From contig JBBRLX010000007.1 of assembly GCA_038231135.1 (NCBI GenBank), positions 65,475 through 129,474 on the forward strand: a DNA stretch of 64,000 nucleotides. The letters are read 5' to 3'. The translations under genes were made by a program, and so were the position numbers. Origin of the DNA: Candidatus Eiseniibacteriota bacterium (GTDB lineage: Bacteria; Eisenbacteria; RBG-16-71-46). The notes under the pieces were generated by a model. The model was not told where the DNA came from. It saw nothing but the letters and a program-made list of their open reading frames with translations, and searched no databases. Of the stretch, positions 3,126 to 54,002 are shown piece after piece. Every line of letters starts with the position of its first letter. The stretch's first letter is position 1.

Positions 3126-3148
3126 CCCGGGCCGGCTCAGGCGTTCGA

Positions 3149-4300
3149 TCACGGTTCGCCCCGCGGCGCCTCGACCAGTGTCAGCGTCACTTCGAGCTCC
3201 TTGCCCGCGCGCTCGAGCGTGAACTTGAGCCGGTCGCCCACCGACGCGCCGTAGATGCTCTTCTGCGCGTCGTCCACGGTGTCGATCGTCACGCCGTTCA
3301 CCCGCCGCAGGCGGTCGCCGACCCGGACCCCGGCCGCGGCGGCGGGACCGTTGGGGTCGACGCGCGTGACGACGAGGCCGTGGATGTCCGCGAACCCGAG
3401 CCGCTGGGCGAGATACGGTGTGAGCGGCTGCACCTGCATGCCGGGCCACGCCGACCGCACCCGGCCGTAGGTGCGGATCTCGTCGAGCAGCCGGCGCGCC
3501 AGGTTGATGGGGATCGCGAACCCGATCCCGAGCGAGCCGCCGCCCTTCGTGAAGATGAACGTGTTGACGCCGATCACCTCGCCGTCGCCGTTCACCAGCG
3601 GCCCGCCGCTGTTGCCGGGATTGATCGCCGCGTCGGTCTGGATCATGTTCTTGTAGACGCCGGATTCGGTGGCCTCGGACTTGACGTCCCGGTGCATCGC
3701 GCTGACCACGCCGGCCGTCACGGTGGGCTGGGTGTCGTTGAGCAGGTAACCGAACGGATTGCCGATCGCGATCGCCCACTCGCCCACCACCAGCTGATCG
3801 CTGTTGCCGAGCGGCGCCACCGGCAGCCTGGTGCCCGACACCTTGATCACCGCCAGGTCGTAGGTGGAGCTCGCGCCCAGCAGCTTCGCCGGCAGCTGGC
3901 GGCCGTCGTTCAGGGTGACGGCGATCTGCTCCGCGTTGTGGATCACGTGCTCGTTCGTGAGCACCGTGCCCGCGGCATCGATGATCACGCCGGAGCCGAG
4001 CCCGCTGATGCGTTCCTTGTATTCGGTGGGCGGATAGAACCGGTCCCAGAACTCGTCGCGGAACGCGCCGCCGAACGGATCGGTGCGCACCACGCGCGTC
4101 GCCACGACGCTCACCGACACCACCGCCGGGCTGACGCGCTCCGCCGCGGTGACGATCGACGTGCGGCGGCTGGCCGGCAGCGACTCGGCGGCGTCCACGG
4201 TCCCGTGCCGGCCCGTCCGTTGCAGCACCCCGAGCGTCCCCGCCACCCCGACCAGCAGCCCGAGCACGAGCCCCGCGGTCCAGCCGCGTCCCCTGCTCAT
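3149..4300 (-). CDS. htrA: HtrA/DegP-family periplasmic serine protease, with a trypsin-like domain and a PDZ domain
   Basis: The product has a signal/TM segment (MSRGRGWTAGLVLGLLVGVAG), an HVIHNAEQ motif, the GNSGGPL catalytic motif and a C-terminal PDZ domain. The ATG at 4300 was verified, and it overlaps the truA stop by 4 nt (ATGA). Confidence 0.85.
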   Translation of the reverse strand: MSRGRGWTAGLVLGLLVGVAGTLGVLQRTGRHGTVDAAESLPASRRTSIVTAAERVSPAVVSVSVVATRVVRTDPFGGAFRDEFWDRFYPPTEYKERISGLGSGVIIDAAGTVLTNEHVIHNAEQIAVTLNDGRQLPAKLLGASSTYDLAVIKVSGTRLPVAPLGNSDQLVVGEWAIAIGNPFGYLLNDTQPTVTAGVVSAMHRDVKSEATESGVYKNMIQTDAAINPGNSGGPLVNGDGEVIGVNTFIFTKGGGSLGIGFAIPINLARRLLDEIRTYGRVRSAWPGMQVQPLTPYLAQRLGFADIHGLVVTRVDPNGPAAAAGVRVGDRLRRVNGVTIDTVDDAQKSIYGASVGDRLKFTLERAGKELEVTLTLVEAPRGEP

Positions 4301-5046
4301 GATGCCGCCTCCGCGTCGTAGCTCACGTGCTCGAGCGACAGCCCGCGCGCGGGCGCCGTGCGGGCCGCCGCGGCGCGGTCGCGCGCCGCCAGCACCGCGA
4401 GCATCGCCGCGCCCGGATCGCGGGTCCGGGCGGCGTCGACCACGGTGCCCACGATGTTGCGCACCATGTGATAGAGAAAGTGATCCGCGGCGATGTCGAG
4501 GCGCGGGCCCGAGTCCGACCCGGACCATGCGGCGAGATCGATGCGGCACACGGGATCGGCGGGCGAGCTGCCGGTGGCGCGGAACGACGAGCAGTCGTGG
4601 CAGCCGAGCAGCGGACGGGTCGCGGCGGCGAGCCGGTCGAGGTCGGGGGTGTGCCGCGGCCACCATGCAAACCGTCCCAGCAGCACGTCGTCGTGATCGA
4701 GCAGCCGGTACTGGTAGCGGCGCGCCCGCGCCGAGTGGCGCGCGTGGAATCCCGCGTGGGCCTCGGCGGCCGCCCGCACCCGCACGTCCGCCGGCAGCGC
4801 CCGGTCGAGCAGCGGGCGCAGCGCCTGCGCCGGCAGCGCGGTCGCGCTGTCGAACGACGCCACCTGGCCCCGCGCATGCACGCCGGCGTCGGTGCGTCCC
4901 GCCGCGTGCAGCGCCGCGACCGGTCCGCCCAGCACCCGGGCGAGCGCCTCCATCAGCGTGCCCTGCACCGTGCGCAGCCCGGGCTGCGACTGCCAGCCAT
5001 GGAACCCCGTGCCGTCATAGGCCACGAGCAGGCGGAACACCCGCAT
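4297..5046 (-). CDS. truA: tRNA pseudouridine(38-40) synthase TruA
   Basis: The product contains LVAYDGTGFHGWQSQ, GRTDAGVHA and the rest of the TruA fold motifs. Confidence 0.9.
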   Translation of the reverse strand: MRVFRLLVAYDGTGFHGWQSQPGLRTVQGTLMEALARVLGGPVAALHAAGRTDAGVHARGQVASFDSATALPAQALRPLLDRALPADVRVRAAAEAHAGFHARHSARARRYQYRLLDHDDVLLGRFAWWPRHTPDLDRLAAATRPLLGCHDCSSFRATGSSPADPVCRIDLAAWSGSDSGPRLDIAADHFLYHMVRNIVGTVVDAARTRDPGAAMLAVLAARDRAAAARTAPARGLSLEHVSYDAEAAS

Positions 5047-10657: not shown

Positions 10658-11677
10658 TCACCCCTGCCATGCCACCCCCCGCGTGCCGGCCTCGAGCGTG
10701 CCGATCACGTACACCGTTTCCCCGGCGTCGCGCAGCGACCGCTCGACATCGGCGGCGCGGTCGGGACCGCACACGGCGATCATGCCGATGCCGAGATTGA
10801 ACGCCTGCCGCGCATCGTCCTCGGGCACCGCCCCCGCCTGGACGAGCCAGCGGAACAGCGCCGGGCGCGGCCACGCCTGCGATCGGATCACCGCGCGCAC
10901 GCCGGGCGGCAGCACGCGCGCCAGGTTGTCGCCGATGCCGCCGCCGGTCACGTGGGCGAGCGCGTGCAGGTCCGAGCGCTCGAGCACCGGCACGAGCGCC
11001 GGCCCGTACCAGCGATGCGGCGCGAGCAGCGCATTGCCGATCGAGACTCCCGCGCCCCCGGGCAGCGGGTCCTCGAGTGCATGCCGCGTGCCCTCGACGA
11101 TGCGGCGCGCCAGCGAGAAGCCGTTGGTGTGGAGCCCGTCGGACGCGAGGCCCAGCACGACGTCGCCGGGTGCCGCCGCCCCGCCGTCGAGCACGCGGTC
11201 GACGGCCACGGTTCCGAGCATGCAGCCGGCGACGTCCACCACCCCCGGCAGATACGTGTCCGGCAGCTCCGCGGTCTCGCCGCCGAGCAGCACCGCGTCC
11301 ACTTCGCGGCAGGCCCGCGCCAGCCCGTCGACCACCGCGCCCACCACCGCGGGATCCAGTTGCGCCTGCGCGATGTAGTCGAGGAACGCGAACGGCCGCG
11401 CGCCATGGACGAGCAGGTCGTTGGCGCCGTGCCGCACCAGGTCCTGGGCGGCGTCGCCGACGCGCCCCTGGGCCAGCGCCACGTGCAGCTTGGTGCCGAC
11501 GCCGTCGAGTGTCGCGGCGATCAGCCGCGACCCGCCCCCCGGCACGTCCAGCACGCCGGCGAATCCGCCGGGCAGGTCGCGCACCCCCCTGGTCCACGTG
11601 GAGCGCGCGGCGCCGACGATCGACTGCTTGAGCGGGGCCGCGCGCTCGACGTCGACCCCGGCGTCGCGATAGCGCAT
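10658..11677 (-). CDS. purM: Phosphoribosylformylglycinamidine cyclo-ligase (AIR synthetase)
   Basis: The product starts MRYRDAGVDVE, contains the motif GGFAGV ... GVGTK, and has the PurM N- and C-terminal domains. Confidence 0.9.
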   Translation of the reverse strand: MRYRDAGVDVERAAPLKQSIVGAARSTWTRGVRDLPGGFAGVLDVPGGGSRLIAATLDGVGTKLHVALAQGRVGDAAQDLVRHGANDLLVHGARPFAFLDYIAQAQLDPAVVGAVVDGLARACREVDAVLLGGETAELPDTYLPGVVDVAGCMLGTVAVDRVLDGGAAAPGDVVLGLASDGLHTNGFSLARRIVEGTRHALEDPLPGGAGVSIGNALLAPHRWYGPALVPVLERSDLHALAHVTGGGIGDNLARVLPPGVRAVIRSQAWPRPALFRWLVQAGAVPEDDARQAFNLGIGMIAVCGPDRAADVERSLRDAGETVYVIGTLEAGTRGVAWQG

Positions 11678-12999
11678 CAGCGGTGGATCCGCAGCGGGCG
11701 GACGCGAAGCTGCTGCAGGTCCTCACTGCTGGGACTGGGCACGAGCGGGAAGCGGCCGGCGACATGGAGCCGGAGCAGGCAGCGCACCACCTCGGGGTCG
11801 AACTGCGTGCCGGCGCCACGCTCCAGCTCGTCGAGCGCCTCGGACAGCTCGAGCGCGCGCCGGTACGGACGGTCGGAGGTCATGGCGTCGAACGCGTCCG
11901 AGACGTTGAGGATGCGCGCGCCGACCGGGACGTCCTCGGCGCGGAGCCCGTAGGGATAGCCCTTGCCGTCCGGACGTTCGTGGTGGGCGCGGATGATCTC
12001 GGACGACTTGTGCAGCGCGCGCACGCGCTTCACGATCTCGGCACCGGCGCCGGGGTGGCCGCGCAGCGTGCGCTGCTCCTCGTGCGACAGCGCGCCCGCC
12101 TTCTGGAGGATCACCTGGTGCTGCGGGCCGATCTTGCCGAGGTCGTGGACCAGCGCCGCGTACTCGATCTCCTCGACCTCGCCCTCGCGCAGCCCGAGTC
12201 CGCGCGCCAGCACCACGGCGTACTGGGCCACGCGCATGGAATGGTGGCGGGTGTAGGGATCCACTTCCTCGAGCACCTCGGTGAGCGTGCGCACGAAGTC
12301 CTTGAGATCCGAGCGGATCTCGACGTACTGGCGGAACGCGTGGCGGGCGACCCAGAACGGCACCGCGAACAGCACGAGCCCCCAGCGGCCCGAGCTGAAC
12401 CAGGTGACGGTCGCGAGCGCGCCGAGCACGATGAACGAGCCATGGTGGAAGATGCCGTTCAGGTAGTTGCGCTCGAACACCCGCCCCGGACTCGGACCGT
12501 GGGCGATGCCGACGATCATCGACGCCAGCGTCGAATTGACCACGAAGTAGCTGACTCCCATCGCGAGCAGCGGCACGACCTGGCGGGACAGCGTGAACCC
12601 GGCGGCGCTGCCGCCGGCCGCACGCCACGCGAACCCCGCCGACAGCTGGGTGAGCACCGCGATCGCCATGTTGTGGGCCACGCGCACCGGCGACCGGCGC
12701 CGCACCAGCGCCTGGCCGGTGAACGTGCTCGCGAGGTCGACGAGCGCGGTCCACGCCGGCCCTAGGATGACGAGACACGGCAGATCGACGACGGCGCTGG
12801 CGGTGGCGTAGCCGCCGCCCGGCAACTCGACCGGCGTCAGCTCGTTGAGCAGCATGAGCAGGCCGGCGATCACGAGCACGGCGAGCGGCGGGCGGCCATC
12901 CCACGGCGCGAACCACAGCGCCGCGCCGGCCGCGAGCACGACGCAGGTGTAGTAGGTGTAGAAGAGCCAGGGGCGCCGTGCGGCGAGCGTCTCGCTCAT
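11677..12999 (-). CDS. Membrane-anchored HD-GYP-domain c-di-GMP phosphodiesterase
   Basis: The N-terminal ~220 aa contains 6-7 predicted TM helices. The C-terminal part is an HD domain (HSMRVAQYAVVLA ... HDLGK) with the HD-GYP signature HHERPDGKGYPYGL. Its stop overlaps the purM start by 1 nt. Confidence 0.8.
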   Translation of the reverse strand: MSETLAARRPWLFYTYYTCVVLAAGAALWFAPWDGRPPLAVLVIAGLLMLLNELTPVELPGGGYATASAVVDLPCLVILGPAWTALVDLASTFTGQALVRRRSPVRVAHNMAIAVLTQLSAGFAWRAAGGSAAGFTLSRQVVPLLAMGVSYFVVNSTLASMIVGIAHGPSPGRVFERNYLNGIFHHGSFIVLGALATVTWFSSGRWGLVLFAVPFWVARHAFRQYVEIRSDLKDFVRTLTEVLEEVDPYTRHHSMRVAQYAVVLARGLGLREGEVEEIEYAALVHDLGKIGPQHQVILQKAGALSHEEQRTLRGHPGAGAEIVKRVRALHKSSEIIRAHHERPDGKGYPYGLRAEDVPVGARILNVSDAFDAMTSDRPYRRALELSEALDELERGAGTQFDPEVVRCLLRLHVAGRFPLVPSPSSEDLQQLRVRPLRIHR

Positions 13000-13286
13000 G
13001 AACTCCGGCTCGGGATGGTGGGCTGTGGGATTGACACGAGACCGACATCCGGTCGGAGGGCCGGTGTCGCTACGTCAAGAGTACTGCTCGTTGCGTATCT
13101 TCGAAACCAGGTAGCCTAACCCTACCAGCCGCCCTTACCGAAGATATTGATCAGCTCCAGGATGAAGTCCACGAAACCCCACCTCCTTCAAGACAATTGC
13201 GTTGCGACCAGGGAGGAACGTATTCCTTACGAACGTTGGGTGGGATCCGCTTCGCTTTTCCGGATTTGATCGCTTCGCTTCGCCTC

Positions 13287-14102
13287 CTATGAAGATGTCG
13301 GTCTCAATACGTATTCGGTGGGTTCCTTGCCGGGCAACCCACCCACAATCCGATTCAGCGCGGACAACGTGGCCAGCACCACGGCTTCCTGGGCATCTTG
13401 CTCCACCGCACAGGATCCGGCCAGCCTTTTCTGGGCCCGGTGGCCGAGCAACTCGACCACCACCAGCGCCACCTCGCCCCGGCCCACAGGCAGGATCTGT
13501 ACCGAGTCGAGGCTGAACGCCACCTCGCCGTCCAGGAACTCGAGCACGGTGGCGACCGTGGCCTGGGCCACGAGCTTGAGCGCACCATCGCGCGTGCCCC
13601 AGCCGGACGCGCTGCCCATGCGGGGCACGCCCTTCCAGCGCAGTTCCACTTGCGCCTGGGCGCGCCGGCCGGACACGTACAGGTTGACGCTCGAGAACCG
13701 GATCCGCTCGTCGGACTCCGCGTCGTCGGACTCCGCGTCGTGGGACTCCGCGTCGTGGGTCGTGGGCTCCTCGGTCACCTCGGGACGAATGTCCGTCTCA
13801 TCCGTGGGACCGTTGTGCGGCGGCGCTGGAATCCCCTCGGGCGCCGGAACCGGCTCGGGGCCCGAGACACGGTCGGTGAACGCCACCGACACCACGCGAA
13901 AGTCGATCGGCCGCTGGAACCGCGTCAGCAGCAGCGTCTGGATGTCCCGCACGATCTGCTTCGCGGGGCGGCGGGACGACGAAACGACGTGGATTTCAGT
14001 GATGTCATCGCCCGCGGTCTGGATGTGGACGCCGTCGATGTCGCGCAGCGAGCGAATCGCGGTTTCCGCGAGCGGGATCCAGGTGGAGTGTGTGGTATCC
14101 AA
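13287..14102 (-). CDS. Hypothetical protein made of two related ~85-aa domains joined by an acidic linker with tandem repeats; the gene is low in GC
   Basis: The ORF is 271 aa with GC3 noticeably lower than its neighbours. The linker reads HDAESHDAESDDAESDE, encoded by 3 x 15-bp tandem repeats. The N- and C-terminal domains share a pattern of a hydrophobic beta-strand followed by an amphipathic helix ending in R(F/I). I do not recognise the family. Confidence 0.55.
   Translation of the reverse strand: MDTTHSTWIPLAETAIRSLRDIDGVHIQTAGDDITEIHVVSSSRRPAKQIVRDIQTLLLTRFQRPIDFRVVSVAFTDRVSGPEPVPAPEGIPAPPHNGPTDETDIRPEVTEEPTTHDAESHDAESDDAESDERIRFSSVNLYVSGRRAQAQVELRWKGVPRMGSASGWGTRDGALKLVAQATVATVLEFLDGEVAFSLDSVQILPVGRGEVALVVVELLGHRAQKRLAGSCAVEQDAQEAVVLATLSALNRIVGGLPGKEPTEYVLRPTSS
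13711..13755. repeat. 3 x 15-bp perfect or near-perfect tandem repeat inside the hypothetical gene; it encodes the (H/D)DAES repeats
   Basis: The plus strand at 13711-13755 reads tcggactccgcgtcg / tcggactccgcgtcg / tgggactccgcgtcg. Confidence 0.8.
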
Positions 14103-14112
14103 TGGGCAGCCG

Positions 14113-14151
14113 GTCTCCAGGGGGGGGAGTTTTGGAGACGCGATTTTAGCA
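14113..14151 (-). promoter_or_regulatory. A 7-bp-stem hairpin (GTCTCCA / TGGAGAC) next to an extended -10-like TGCTAAAAT, between the PfkB kinase stop and the start of the hypothetical gene
   Basis: The plus strand reads ggtctcca-ggggggggagttt-tggagacg, then attttagca, which is TGCTAAAAT on the minus strand. This could be a weak terminator for the kinase gene, or a promoter and 5'-UTR structure for 13287..14102. There is no U-tract. Confidence 0.25.
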
Positions 14152-14178
14152 CACGCCGAAAACCCGACTCCTAGGAAT

Positions 14179-15123
14179 TCACCCGAGAACCGTGGGGTCC
14201 AGCTCGAAGTCCACCATCCGGTGCAGCACGGTCATGCGTTCGCCGATTTCCGCACGGTTGGTTTCCAAAAGTCTCATGGGACTGAACCCCTCGATGGCGA
14301 TCGACGCCATCACCGATCCCGCGACCAGCGCCTGGCGCACGACACCGGGCTCGGCACTGCCCGCGCGTGCCACCCAGCCCAGGAACCCGCCGGCGAACGA
14401 GTCGCCCGCCCCGGTGGGATCGTTGAGCGACGCTACAGGATATGCGGGAGTGATGAACCGGTCGTCCCGCGACTGGTACAGCGCGCCATGCTCGCCCTTC
14501 TTGATGATGACCGCCCGGGCGCCGTGTTCGAGCAGCCGGTCGGCGGCGCGGATCAACTGCGTCTCGCCGGACAGCGCCCGCGCCTCCTCCTCGTTGAGCA
14601 GCGCGATGTCGACTTCGCGCAGCACCTCGAACACCCGGTCGGGCTTGCGCGCGATCCAGTAGTTCATGGTGTCCGACAGCGTGAGCCGCGCGCCCTTCGA
14701 CTGGCGCAGCACCTCGAGCTGCAGTTCGGGATCGATGTTCGCGAGGAACACGAACGGCGTGGAGCGATGCGTGGCATCGAGCCGCGGATGGAACGTCGAG
14801 AACACGTTGAGCTGGGTCTCGAGCGTATGCGCGTGCCCGAGCTCGGCGGAATATTCCCCGCGCCAGCGAAACGTGCTGCCGGGAGCGGTCTCGAGGCCGC
14901 TCAGATCGATGCCGCGCGATTCGAACCGGGCCCGGTGCTCGGCGGGAAAGTCCTCCCCCACCACCGCGATCATGCTCACGGCCGCGAAATGGCTCGCCGA
15001 CAGCGAGAAGTACGATGCCGAACCCCCCAGCGCCTCGACCGCCTCGCCGAACGGCGTGCGCACCGAGTCGAGCGCCACCGAGCCCACGACCAGGATCGAG
15101 GGTGGCCGCGATTCGGGCGTCAC
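14179..15123 (-). CDS. PfkB-family carbohydrate/nucleoside kinase (ribokinase-like)
   Basis: The product contains SILVVGSVALD and the ribokinase-family signature DPTGAGDSFAGGF. The GTG start at 15123 overlaps the argS TGA stop (GTGA). The upstream part of track ORF 14179..15474 is run-on. Confidence 0.8.
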   Translation of the reverse strand: MTPESRPPSILVVGSVALDSVRTPFGEAVEALGGSASYFSLSASHFAAVSMIAVVGEDFPAEHRARFESRGIDLSGLETAPGSTFRWRGEYSAELGHAHTLETQLNVFSTFHPRLDATHRSTPFVFLANIDPELQLEVLRQSKGARLTLSDTMNYWIARKPDRVFEVLREVDIALLNEEEARALSGETQLIRAADRLLEHGARAVIIKKGEHGALYQSRDDRFITPAYPVASLNDPTGAGDSFAGGFLGWVARAGSAEPGVVRQALVAGSVMASIAIEGFSPMRLLETNRAEIGERMTVLHRMVDFELDPTVLG

Positions 15124-52485: not shown

Positions 52486-52604
52486 GGGCCCCAGTCTGCC
52501 GGCGACGAGCGTCCGCTTCCGGATTCGCGCCCTCGCCCATTCCAGTGAATCGTGTTGCGACGCTCCGGGTCCGCTATGGCGGAGTCGGGGCAACCGTGTT
52601 CTCC

Positions 52605-54002
52605 TCAGGGAGCGGAGGCAGGGGAGCGATGGGGGGCGGCGGAAGTCGCCGACGTCGACGTGCGACCGAGTGCGCGCTGGCGCTGCACCACGCGCCACGG
52701 ATCATTGGCCAGAATCAACACCAGCAGCGAGCCCATCATCACGAGACCCACCTGCTGGAACCGGGTGTAGGCCAGGGCGGAAATCTTCTGGCGGCGGATC
52801 GCCTCGATCACCGCGAGCAGGATGTGGCCGCCGTCGAGCACTGGCAGCGGCATCAGGTTGAACGCCATGATCGCGATGTTGATCATCGCGAGGAACTGCA
52901 GGAAGAAATCGGGACCGCGCTTCGCCTGTTCGCTCGCCACCTGGGCGATGAACAACGGTCCCCCGACGTACTCCCGGTAGTAGAGCGGGCGCGACACGGT
53001 GAGCCACATGCCGGCGTAGACGTTGCGGATCACTTCGCCGGTCGCGTGCCAGCCCATGTCGATCGACTCCAGGATGCCGGAGCGCTCGATGAACTTGCCC
53101 TGCCGCGGGGCTTCGATGCCAATCCGCGCGTTGTCGCTCTGCGCGCCCGTGTTCATCGGCACGATATCGACGTTAAACGTGCGTCCACCACGATCGACCG
53201 TCAAGTGCACGGTGCGATCGACATTGCCCCTCAAGGACAGCGGCAGATCGTCCCAGGTCGTGATTCGTTTGCCGTTCACCGCCAGAATGCGATCACCCTC
53301 CTTGATGCCCACCTTGTACGCCGGCATACCCGTTATGACGGCGCCGACGATCGGCAACGTTGGAGGCAGTCGAAAATTCGAGAACACGGGCTCGCGCCGG
53401 TCCGCCGGCACCGTGATCGTCAGGTGGCTGCTCAGGACGCCCACATCGGGCCGCTCGATGGCCAGCACGACCGCACGATCCTTCGGAACCCGGGAATATG
53501 CGTAGAACATCTGCTCCCAGGTCGACACCGGACTGCCGTTCAACGCCACCAGCCGATCCCCAGTACGAAAGCCGGCCTGATACGCGACGCTGGTGTCCGG
53601 CGTGGCCCCGAGCAAGTTCGGGTAGTCGGGACGGGATATCCCGATCATGCCGATCGTGCACAGGATGATCAGCGCGGTGAGGAGATTGCAGGCGGGGCCC
53701 GCGGCCGCGATCAGGATGCGGCCGTACCAGGGGTGCGACAGGAACTCCTCGTCCGAGTTCGGCATGTCGCCTTCGGGGCTCGGGCTGTCGCCCGCCATCG
53801 CGACGTAGCCGCCGAACGGGATCCACGCCAGGCGATACTCGGTGCCGCCCCGGGTGAACGAGAACATCGCGGGGCCGAATCCGAGCGAAAACCGGATCAC
53901 CCGGACACCCCGCCATTTGGCCATCAGGAAATGGCCGAGCTCATGGACAAATATGACCAATCCGAGCACCAGAATGCCCGGCAACACGAGATTCCAAGAC
54001 AC
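52605..54002 (-). CDS. rseP: RIP (site-2) zinc metalloprotease RseP, M50 family with PDZ domains
   Basis: The product has an HEXXH motif in TM1 (FVHELGHFLMA), PDZ domains and an LDG motif (LMPLPVLDGGHIL). The proposed GTG start at 54002 has AAGGA 7 nt upstream. The track 'M' at 54032 is a TTG codon. Confidence 0.8.
   Translation of the reverse strand: MSWNLVLPGILVLGLVIFVHELGHFLMAKWRGVRVIRFSLGFGPAMFSFTRGGTEYRLAWIPFGGYVAMAGDSPSPEGDMPNSDEEFLSHPWYGRILIAAAGPACNLLTALIILCTIGMIGISRPDYPNLLGATPDTSVAYQAGFRTGDRLVALNGSPVSTWEQMFYAYSRVPKDRAVVLAIERPDVGVLSSHLTITVPADRREPVFSNFRLPPTLPIVGAVITGMPAYKVGIKEGDRILAVNGKRITTWDDLPLSLRGNVDRTVHLTVDRGGRTFNVDIVPMNTGAQSDNARIGIEAPRQGKFIERSGILESIDMGWHATGEVIRNVYAGMWLTVSRPLYYREYVGGPLFIAQVASEQAKRGPDFFLQFLAMINIAIMAFNLMPLPVLDGGHILLAVIEAIRRQKISALAYTRFQQVGLVMMGSLLVLILANDPWRVVQRQRALGRTSTSATSAAPHRSPASAP

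Follow-up and report, generated by a model that had tools for sequence, protein, structure and literature searches.

The stretch of DNA analysed here (the window: 64,000 nucleotides (nt) of contig JBBRLX010000007.1 from a Candidatus Eiseniibacteriota bacterium) encodes at 13287-14102, on the minus strand, a conserved hypothetical protein of 271 amino acids (aa) that starts with TTG, as a preliminary description of this DNA had stated. We call this gene X; the genetic elements of the window given below with coordinates lie on the minus strand. X was found in a module of conserved order, in which its own probable promoter and X itself are followed by a structured leader RNA, a micro open reading frame (micro-ORF) and a gene for a MASE9-type HD-GYP phosphodiesterase of cyclic di-GMP (c-di-GMP). 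The product of X is a widely conserved, uncharacterised two-domain protein, encoded by neither a foreign nor an orphan gene, and is a candidate regulator of the signalling module formed by the leader, the micro-ORF and the HD-GYP gene. The whole module appears to be previously undescribed: Pfam, NCBIfam, Rfam 15 and the searchable literature contained no description of the X family, the leader RNA or the micro-ORF, an absence that is not in itself proof of novelty.

Conserved order and genomic coupling of the module

In the window, the whole structured leader spans 13037-13306, the micro-ORF lies at 13122-13172 and the HD-GYP gene, which encodes a membrane phosphodiesterase of 440 aa, at 11677-12999. 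The HD-GYP protein carries HHERPDGKGYP, an instance of the HD...HHExxDGxGYP signature that was present in most of the genes downstream of X, and its orthologues have a MASE9-type N-terminus (Pfam HD_5/HD and a weak MASE9 match). The gene on the other side of X is pfkB, whose product matched the PfkB kinases (expect value (E) = 1e-24). Thus both flanks, which had been described as HD-GYP and sugar-kinase genes, were correctly named.

A genome scan with an alignment of seven X sequences yielded 80 loci, all of which were annotated using tblastn. By record title, these loci belong to Eisenbacteria, Gemmatimonadota, Zixibacteria, Armatimonadota, Sumerlaeota and many Bacillota (Thermincola, Dethiobacter, Symbiobacterium, Thermovenabulum, Pseudoflavonifractor, Formimonas and Phosphitispora). 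An HD-GYP homologue directly followed X in 64 of the 77 informative loci, and the pair occurred in at least five phyla (Eisenbacteria, Bacillota, Gemmatimonadota, Armatimonadota and Sumerlaeota). Around distant homologues in other phyla (25-38% identity), the arrangement was X, a gap of 200-490 nt and the HD-GYP gene, often then DUF5317. In Bacillota and Armatimonadota, but not in Eisenbacteria, DUF5317 comes after the HD-GYP gene.

Within Eisenbacteria, four contigs (55-100% identity) shared the gene order PAP2, PTS-EIIA, CCA-adding enzyme, polyprenyl synthase, RsfS, ArgS, PfkB, X, HD-GYP, PurM and sigma-54 activator, and the same order was present in about 35 further loci. The segment from rsfS through argS, pfkB, X, the HD-GYP gene and purM to the sigma-54 activator was found in every Eisenbacteria contig examined, with X at 46-64% protein identity. 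X did not behave as an island gene: every Eisenbacteria locus had it in the interval from pfkB to the HD-GYP gene.

The coupling was also examined in the reciprocal, RNA-first direction. A metagenome scan used the RNA-only pattern AGCGRAGCGR...TAGCGRA...AGAG, and a covariance model of the leader (R2, described below) verified 12 of the 80 matches listed. All 12 verified elements were followed by an HD-GYP homologue, and X lay immediately upstream in 10 of the 11 that had upstream sequence. Among the 68 non-verified pattern matches, X was present once (L095), at a true locus that the model had missed. X is coupled in genomes, in both directions of the test, to the leader, the micro-ORF and the MASE9-type HD-GYP gene.

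Upstream, X occurs in three unrelated contexts, namely next to pfkB, next to hpf with or without a gene of 366 aa, and next to pheT. The neighbours of X include hpf in Bacillota, rsfS and argS in Eisenbacteria, and pheST, secA and prfB, a company that would suit a translation- or ribosome-associated factor whose link with the HD-GYP gene is only conserved gene order. However, the folds of X are generic alpha/beta units, the leader/micro-ORF/HD-GYP block is the sole constant neighbour over the three contexts, and a search that starts from the RNA recovers X. We therefore consider a role of this kind very improbable.

The loci showed a number of local variations. The 366-aa gene between hpf and X, which had no Pfam match, is present in many Bacillota-type loci (L011, at 894-1994; L058, L063, L068, L071, L076, L079 and L082). 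One Thermincola metagenome-assembled genome (L069) has tandem copies of X (3148-3756 and 3959-4609) ahead of the leader/micro-ORF/HD-GYP block, and several Thermincola-type loci have two tandem HD-GYP genes. In a paralogous subgroup of Eisenbacteria (L043-L049), the HD-GYP homologue after X keeps HDIGK, no GYP was found in it, and it may represent a catalytically degenerate branch. A locus titled Candidatus Limnocylindria (L015) has the full Eisenbacteria-type synteny with an X of 55% identity; this contig may be mis-binned or mislabelled. X stands by itself, with purM (behind a conserved promoter-like spacer) or spoVS directly next, in L055-L057, L059, L064, L077, L078, L081, L080 and L083. 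In L154, an unrelated 83-aa Cys-rich protein and a glycosidase-like gene are encoded upstream of the leader in place of X.

The leader RNA and the micro-ORF

The leader starts at or inside the last codons of X and contains three to five AGCGR motifs. These repeats begin 3-100 nt past the stop codon of X or overlap it, and in the window (13246-13283) they form two blocks, GCGAAGCGAAGCGA (13270-13283) and AGCGAAGCGGA (13246-13256). The sequence AGCGRAGCG was detected within 410 nt after the X stop codon in 55 of 78 loci; it is about 90-fold enriched there, with 75 matches in the 31.5 kb after X versus 30 in 1,154 kb elsewhere. The core of the window leader, as delimited by R2 (13166-13257), comprises an AGCGR doublet, a strand CCCACC(C) (13238-13244) complementary to the Shine-Dalgarno sequence (anti-SD strand), the Shine-Dalgarno (SD) sequence AAGGAGG itself (13182-13188), the pairing strand GGTGGGGTTTCG and the GTG start codon of the micro-ORF.

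RNAalifold gave no structure for MAFFT alignments of the leaders, in which the helices were out of register. A first covariance model was built from a seed of five Clostridia-type leaders and then iterated. It contains a 10-bp helix (P1), in which the bases after the AGCGR doublet pair with the region from the SD sequence to the start codon, and a 6-bp hairpin (P2), whose loop is often UAGCGRA. In 715 kb searched on both strands, this model gave 30 plus-strand matches, all between X and the micro-ORF, and one weak reverse-strand echo (E = 0.51) at the same site in L085. Further, the model seeded from Clostridia also matched Eisenbacteria, with E down to 1.4e-5. The second-round model, R2, gave 52 matches, all at the expected place, among which the window leader (13166-13257) scored 27.7 bits (E = 0.014). 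The leader is thus recognisable from Clostridia to Eisenbacteria, yet lies outside Rfam 15.

In the R2 alignment, 91.8% of the P1/P2 cells were paired, compared with 68% after shuffling and 35-47% when the partner strand was slid. Both sides had changed in 15 of 16 base pairs, and the covariation score was 0.444 versus 0.155 for shuffled and 0.07-0.09 for slid controls; note that this alignment was fitted to the model. The element combines compensatory changes with a fixed genomic position, as is expected of a structured cis-regulatory RNA. Sequestration of the SD sequence by P1 varied among lineages, from strong and partner-specific to weak.

Such an element could be a self-sufficient riboswitch for a small molecule, for example one related to cyclic dinucleotides, in which case X would be a co-transcribed metabolite-binding protein with a role independent of the RNA. 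The covarying helices that occlude the SD sequence and the start codon would fit this explanation, as would the conserved unpaired nucleotides (AGCGRAGCG, the UAGCGRA loop and AGAG after P2), the mutually exclusive pairings seen by eye in some Bacillota leaders (GCGGUU:AACCGU versus GUUAUCC:GGAUAAC) and the RNA without X in L154. We nevertheless regard it as unlikely. In Rfam 15, no relevant match was found at E <= 1 in positions 12000-15000 of the window, the c-di-GMP-I and c-di-GMP-II classes included, and none reached the gathering score in 17 loci carrying the leader element. The conserved motif is a short repeat that varies in number, in spacing and in where it stands relative to the anti-SD strand; it is arranged in tandem in some lineages, lies 15 nt apart in Thermincola-type leaders and has extra upstream doublets in Eisenbacteria. 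Further, the P2 loop motif is absent in many Eisenbacteria and in the window, which is unusual for an aptamer core. Because the AGCGR motifs shift relative to the anti-SD strand between lineages, protein-binding sites fit better than a fixed aptamer core.

A long-range helix (P0) encloses the leader and the micro-ORF. In the window, its 5' arm, TGAGACCGACATCT (13293-13306), overlaps the last X codons L-R-P-T-S, its 3' arm, GGATGTCGGTCTCG (13037-13050), is a conserved block, and the two arms form 12 Watson-Crick and 2 G-U pairs. An equivalent helix of 10-20 bp, with a span of about 190-290 nt, was present in roughly 45 of 65 loci as counted from the helix table. The arms differ by lineage yet are complementary (GGGACCGGCA with TGTCGGTCCC, CTGGACCGGCGGT with ACCGCCGGTCCAG and AGTCAAAACATCATAAA with TTTATGATGTTTTGACT). 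The longest-helix statistic was in modest excess only (13.5 bp versus 10.5 bp after shuffling); the argument for P0 comes from its positional consistency, the jointly changing arms and a rare-codon signature, and not from helix length. In Bacillota, an A-run and a U-run flank the helix, and P0 may there resemble a terminator stem with a very large loop.

The rare-codon signature lies in the tail of X (...EYVLRPTS in Eisenbacteria), where TTG-AGA-CCG-ACA was used in 21-26 of 37 loci. In seven genes of the window, the share of these codons among their synonyms was 0.4% for AGA, 1.7% for ACA and 4.5% for TTG. We attribute the low GC content at third codon positions (GC3) of the tail to the 5' arm of P0, which imposes rare codons there. 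This codon choice shows selection at the RNA level inside the coding sequence of X, and the conservation of the tail ...LRPTS is due at least in part to a constraint on the RNA. The arm of P0 on the last codons of X provides a clear case of dual coding and structural constraint.

The micro-ORF of the window begins with GTG at 13172, 3' of the strong SD sequence AAGGAGG, comprises 16 codons (VDFILELINIFGKGGW) and ends with a TAG stop codon at 13122-13124. It is conserved: equivalents with a strong SD sequence were found in nearly every locus that has an HD-GYP gene downstream, and at least five phyla encode homologues of 16-30 aa, always in the interval from X to the HD-GYP gene. The Eisenbacteria micropeptides (16-19 aa) have the form M-D/E-x-(hydrophobic)-FFGKAGW, and the paralogous subgroup L043-L049 has a distinct 20-aa form, MWELLLDLLSVIFEGKSGWM. 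Those of Bacillota and other groups (24-30 aa) combine a basic N-terminus with a hydrophobic helix and tails of the ...LLAGGAxFKW type, some with a lipobox-like L-[ST]-C-G. In Eisenbacteria, the entropy at the three codon positions was 0.72/0.29/0.95, the residues G-K-A-G being fixed while third positions vary. This pattern is the signature of a translated ORF and supports translation of the micro-ORF. A search of NCBIfam with six micropeptides returned nothing relevant.

Protein X and its gene

An AlphaFold2 model of X, computed with 43 homologues, had a mean predicted local distance difference test score (pLDDT) of 82. It comprises an alpha-beta-beta-alpha-beta N domain (residues 8-75; 13878-14081), a disordered linker with pLDDT of about 50 (residues 76-132; 13707-13877), a (beta-beta-beta-alpha)x2 C domain (residues 133-253; 13344-13706) and the conserved tail (residues 254-271); no membrane helix was predicted. 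The C domain is superposable on solved LeuA-type regulatory domains, and the model shows it with the fold of the allosteric (dimerisation) domain of LeuA/CimA. Residues 130-252 matched the Pfam family LeuA_dimer (PF08502) with 20.9 bits (E = 3.5e-4; model positions 18-130 of 131), and distant X homologues matched it with 11.7-18.6 bits, all below threshold. Searches of Pfam and NCBIfam with X gave only these sub-threshold LeuA matches and no further domain; thus the statement that X could not be matched to a known family holds, in that no curated family reached its threshold. In addition to the sub-threshold similarity to the C-terminal domain of LeuA/CimA (LiCMS), X differs from these enzymes in that it has no HMGL-like catalytic barrel, its C domain is fused to the unrelated alpha-beta-beta-alpha-beta domain, and its genomic context is c-di-GMP signalling rather than branched-chain amino-acid synthesis.

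X had been read as two related domains of about 85 aa. When hhalign was used to compare the N domain with the C domain, taken whole or one half at a time, the profile-profile probability was 0.1-0.2%, and the two folds differ (alpha-beta-beta-alpha-beta versus (beta-beta-beta-alpha)x2). No similarity between the N and C halves of X was detected, an outcome that the preliminary description had itself named as refuting, and we reject their origin by duplication. Only the two halves of the C domain form a faint mutual repeat (E = 0.016).

A word-indexed search yielded 809 homologues of X at E <= 1e-3; the best were full-length with 50-75% identity, and the few named ones were Candidatus Eisenbacteria. 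In a profile search of 50%-identity representatives, the family comprised 2,580 clusters at E <= 1e-3 and 1,191 at E <= 1e-10. The source names of the homologues were all 'hypothetical'. The folded domains remain recognisable at 25-38% identity in other phyla, and 46 columns were invariant across 43 X sequences. The mean net charge of the two folded domains was +1.8/+1.6 in Eisenbacteria and about 0 family-wide.

X probably has a promoter of its own. An extended -10-like element, TGCTAAAAT, is located at 14143-14151, and a TG(n)TAnnnT element, mostly TGTGCTAnnnT, was found 44-101 nt 5' of the X start codon in 30 of 30 Eisenbacteria loci, compared with a chance expectation of about 0.15 per locus. 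A scan of 12900-14300 with sigma-70 and terminator consensus sequences detected no sites, neither a -35 element to match the -10-like one nor a full -35/-10 pair. The 5' untranslated region (UTR) of X contains a hairpin at 14113-14139 with a 7-bp stem (GTCTCCA/TGGAGAC), a C-rich loop and an SD-like GGAG in its 3' arm, and it is possible that this hairpin occludes the SD sequence of X. The hairpin sequence is not conserved; by eye, C-rich tracts 5' of the SD sequence recur in related loci. The promoter-like element and the hairpin had both been noticed in the preliminary description, which proposed separate regulatory signals for X, and the conservation in Eisenbacteria agrees with that proposal.

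The linker is of low complexity and hypervariable; its length ranges over 15-90 aa in Eisenbacteria, compared with 5-7 aa in Bacillota-type homologues. In the window, it is acidic and includes three 15-bp tandem units that encode HDAES, HDAES and DDAES (13713-13757; Tandem Repeats Finder and direct reading). At 13699-13756, Tandem Repeats Finder reported an array with a period of 15 and 4.0 copies, which had 93% matches and a score of 95. The first two units are identical, the third is one base off and DE comes next in frame. The repeat had been described as perfect and placed 2 nt away; the three units and their peptide were confirmed, and the repeat is nearly perfect. Three units were present in both assemblies that have an identical X protein, the only two such assemblies, and the AlphaFold2 model had a pLDDT of about 50 over the HDAES stretch. 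The closest relative (P0002, 75% identity overall) has an EPEPEPEP linker with no HDAES units. Therefore, the repeat is a lineage-specific expansion in a disordered spacer and is of little interest in itself.

The GC content of 13000-14180 was 0.643, compared with a mean of 0.722 for the window, which places this region in the 0.7th percentile among segments of the same size. The sole other region with a GC content as low lies at about 52500-54000 (minimum 0.632, in a 1,181-nt segment starting near 52850). The X ORF alone had a GC content of 0.675 (10th percentile) and a GC3 of 0.857, similar to those of the neighbouring pfkB (0.679 and 0.873). The reported composition shift is thus real for the region and does not extend to the ORF, whose third positions are not atypical compared with its neighbour. 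Three parts account for the dip, namely the downstream spacer of 287 nt (GC 0.564), the 5' UTR (0.592) and the final 18 codons of X (GC3 0.556), and the low GC lies in conserved non-coding RNA and in codons under constraint from the RNA structure.

These results bear on the original reading of X as a horizontally acquired or fast-evolving orphan with duplicated halves and a contingency-type repeat. The unusual GC content of the region, the near-perfect 15-bp repeat and the hypervariable linker are what such a gene might show. However, X is conserved throughout the phylum and beyond, in the same syntenic position in every Eisenbacteria contig examined, its halves are unrelated, and the low GC lies in the conserved RNA and the RNA-constrained codons. 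Horizontal acquisition was rejected because of the shared synteny and the neighbour-like GC3. Fast evolution applies to the linker, not to the whole gene, since the two folded domains are well conserved. Further, the 15-bp unit keeps the reading frame, and therefore the repeat cannot be an on/off switch. We consider that this reading has almost no likelihood and that the repeat and the GC dip themselves are ordinary features.

Possible roles of X and related systems

The best-supported explanation, which is unproven and which we put forward tentatively, is that X is a ligand-sensing regulator that acts on its own downstream leader in the manner of HutP. X would be a trans-acting sensor whose LeuA-like domain dimerises and binds a small ligand. 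It would then bind the AGCGR repeats in the RNA just 3' of its own gene, and binding would shift the balance between the sequestering helices P1 and P0 and an open form. The shift would set the translation of the micropeptide and the read-through into the HD-GYP gene, and the micropeptide would probably act on the membrane sensor domain of the phosphodiesterase. In its favour are the coupling of X to the HD-GYP gene across phyla and upstream contexts, the covarying leader found at its expected place, the enrichment of AGCGRAGCG after X, the P0 arm with its rare codons, the recovery of X from the RNA pattern and the AGCGR motifs that shift between lineages.

Several results weigh against this explanation. 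In 13 of 77 loci, X is present without an adjacent leader, micro-ORF or HD-GYP gene (X-purM, X-spoVS and others), and X must therefore work without an adjacent target there. Locus L154 (6020-6165) has a leader, a micro-ORF (MKKVLSIIMSLAMALLASGALHKVG) and an HD-GYP gene without X upstream. The LeuA_dimer match of X is under the Pfam gathering threshold (20.9 versus 24.9 bits), and a profile search of PDB sequences with X returned nothing at E <= 1. When SD duplexes were mixed and matched between loci, the true partner came within the top 10% for 23 of 64 loci, which is only moderate support. Finally, the net-charge analysis gave no general nucleic-acid-binding signature, as the folded domains are near neutral.

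Neutral domains would suit a protein or ligand binder, and X may act instead as a protein-level partner, either as a cytoplasmic regulatory subunit of the MASE9-HD-GYP enzyme or as a receptor of the micropeptide. In a receptor, the conserved C-terminal Trp of the micropeptide, with its free carboxylate, might fill the Leu/Ile pocket of the LeuA/CimA-type domain. The pairing of X and the HD-GYP gene across phyla and the LeuA-type amino-acid-binding fold are consistent with a partner of this kind, as are the micropeptide ends, which are ...GKAGW in Eisenbacteria and aromatic/basic (..KW, ..KWG, ..RW) in Bacillota. It leaves unexplained, however, the start of the leader exactly at or inside the X stop codon and the AGCGR repeats, and X is kept in the 13 loci that have no adjacent peptide or enzyme. 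We regard a protein-level partnership as rather doubtful.

The proposed action of X on its leader can be compared with known systems. HutP is a ligand-activated RNA-binding antiterminator of the leader of the Bacillus subtilis hut operon. As in hut, the gene for the candidate regulator is directly upstream of an RNA with a repeated short motif, a helix would block downstream expression, and the proposed activity of X depends on an amino-acid-type ligand. However, X resembles HutP in neither sequence nor fold, and its binding to RNA is only proposed; further, the X leader motif is AGCGR rather than UAG, and the leader shows occlusion of the SD sequence and start codon with a long-range helix of about 200-290 nt, not a compact terminator. 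Translational control of the CsrA/RsmA type relies on repeated GGA motifs, of which one lies in a hairpin loop and another at the SD sequence. The X leader similarly has purine-rich repeats, one in a hairpin loop (UAGCGGA) and others by the strand that pairs with the SD sequence, and AGCGGA contains GGA. However, the core motif is AGCGR, there are GCGAA variants without GGA, the motifs are on the anti-SD side and not on the SD sequence itself, and X is unrelated to CsrA.

The micropeptides have possible parallels among small membrane or pheromone-type peptides, such as regulators of the MgrB-PhoQ type and SHP/ComS precursors. Those of Bacillota resemble such peptides in length (24-30 aa), basic N-terminus, hydrophobic helix, aromatic/basic tail and, in some, the lipobox-like L-[ST]-C-G. 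Those of Eisenbacteria differ, with 16-19 aa, an acidic N-terminus and no signal-like segment, and had no match in NCBIfam.

The gene downstream of X, with its HHExxDGxGYP motif and, in orthologues, Pfam HD_5 and weak MASE9 matches, resembles the MASE9-HD-GYP phosphodiesterases, which include T. maritima TM1467 and S. venezuelae HdgA (Galperin & Chou preprint, 10.1101/2021.11.05.467447). That preprint, which defined MASE9, states in its passages on the domain that the MASE9 ligand is unknown and that its binding probably takes place inside the membrane; these passages contain no mention of a partner protein, a leader RNA or a micro-ORF.

In its full form, our proposal would describe a multi-phylum module in which a stand-alone LeuA-type ligand sensor, by binding an RNA whose 5' part coincides with the final codons of the sensor gene, gates the translation of a micropeptide that tunes a membrane c-di-GMP phosphodiesterase; taken as a whole, this is speculative and on balance doubtful. 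If true, the leader would belong to a new class of RNA that responds to a protein, and c-di-GMP turnover would have a further, new route of input. At least 2,580 50%-identity clusters that are now labelled 'hypothetical' gain a domain assignment and a functional context. MASE9 HD-GYP phosphodiesterases are widespread and their inputs are unknown, and the upstream protein, structured RNA and micropeptide are concrete, testable candidates for such inputs.

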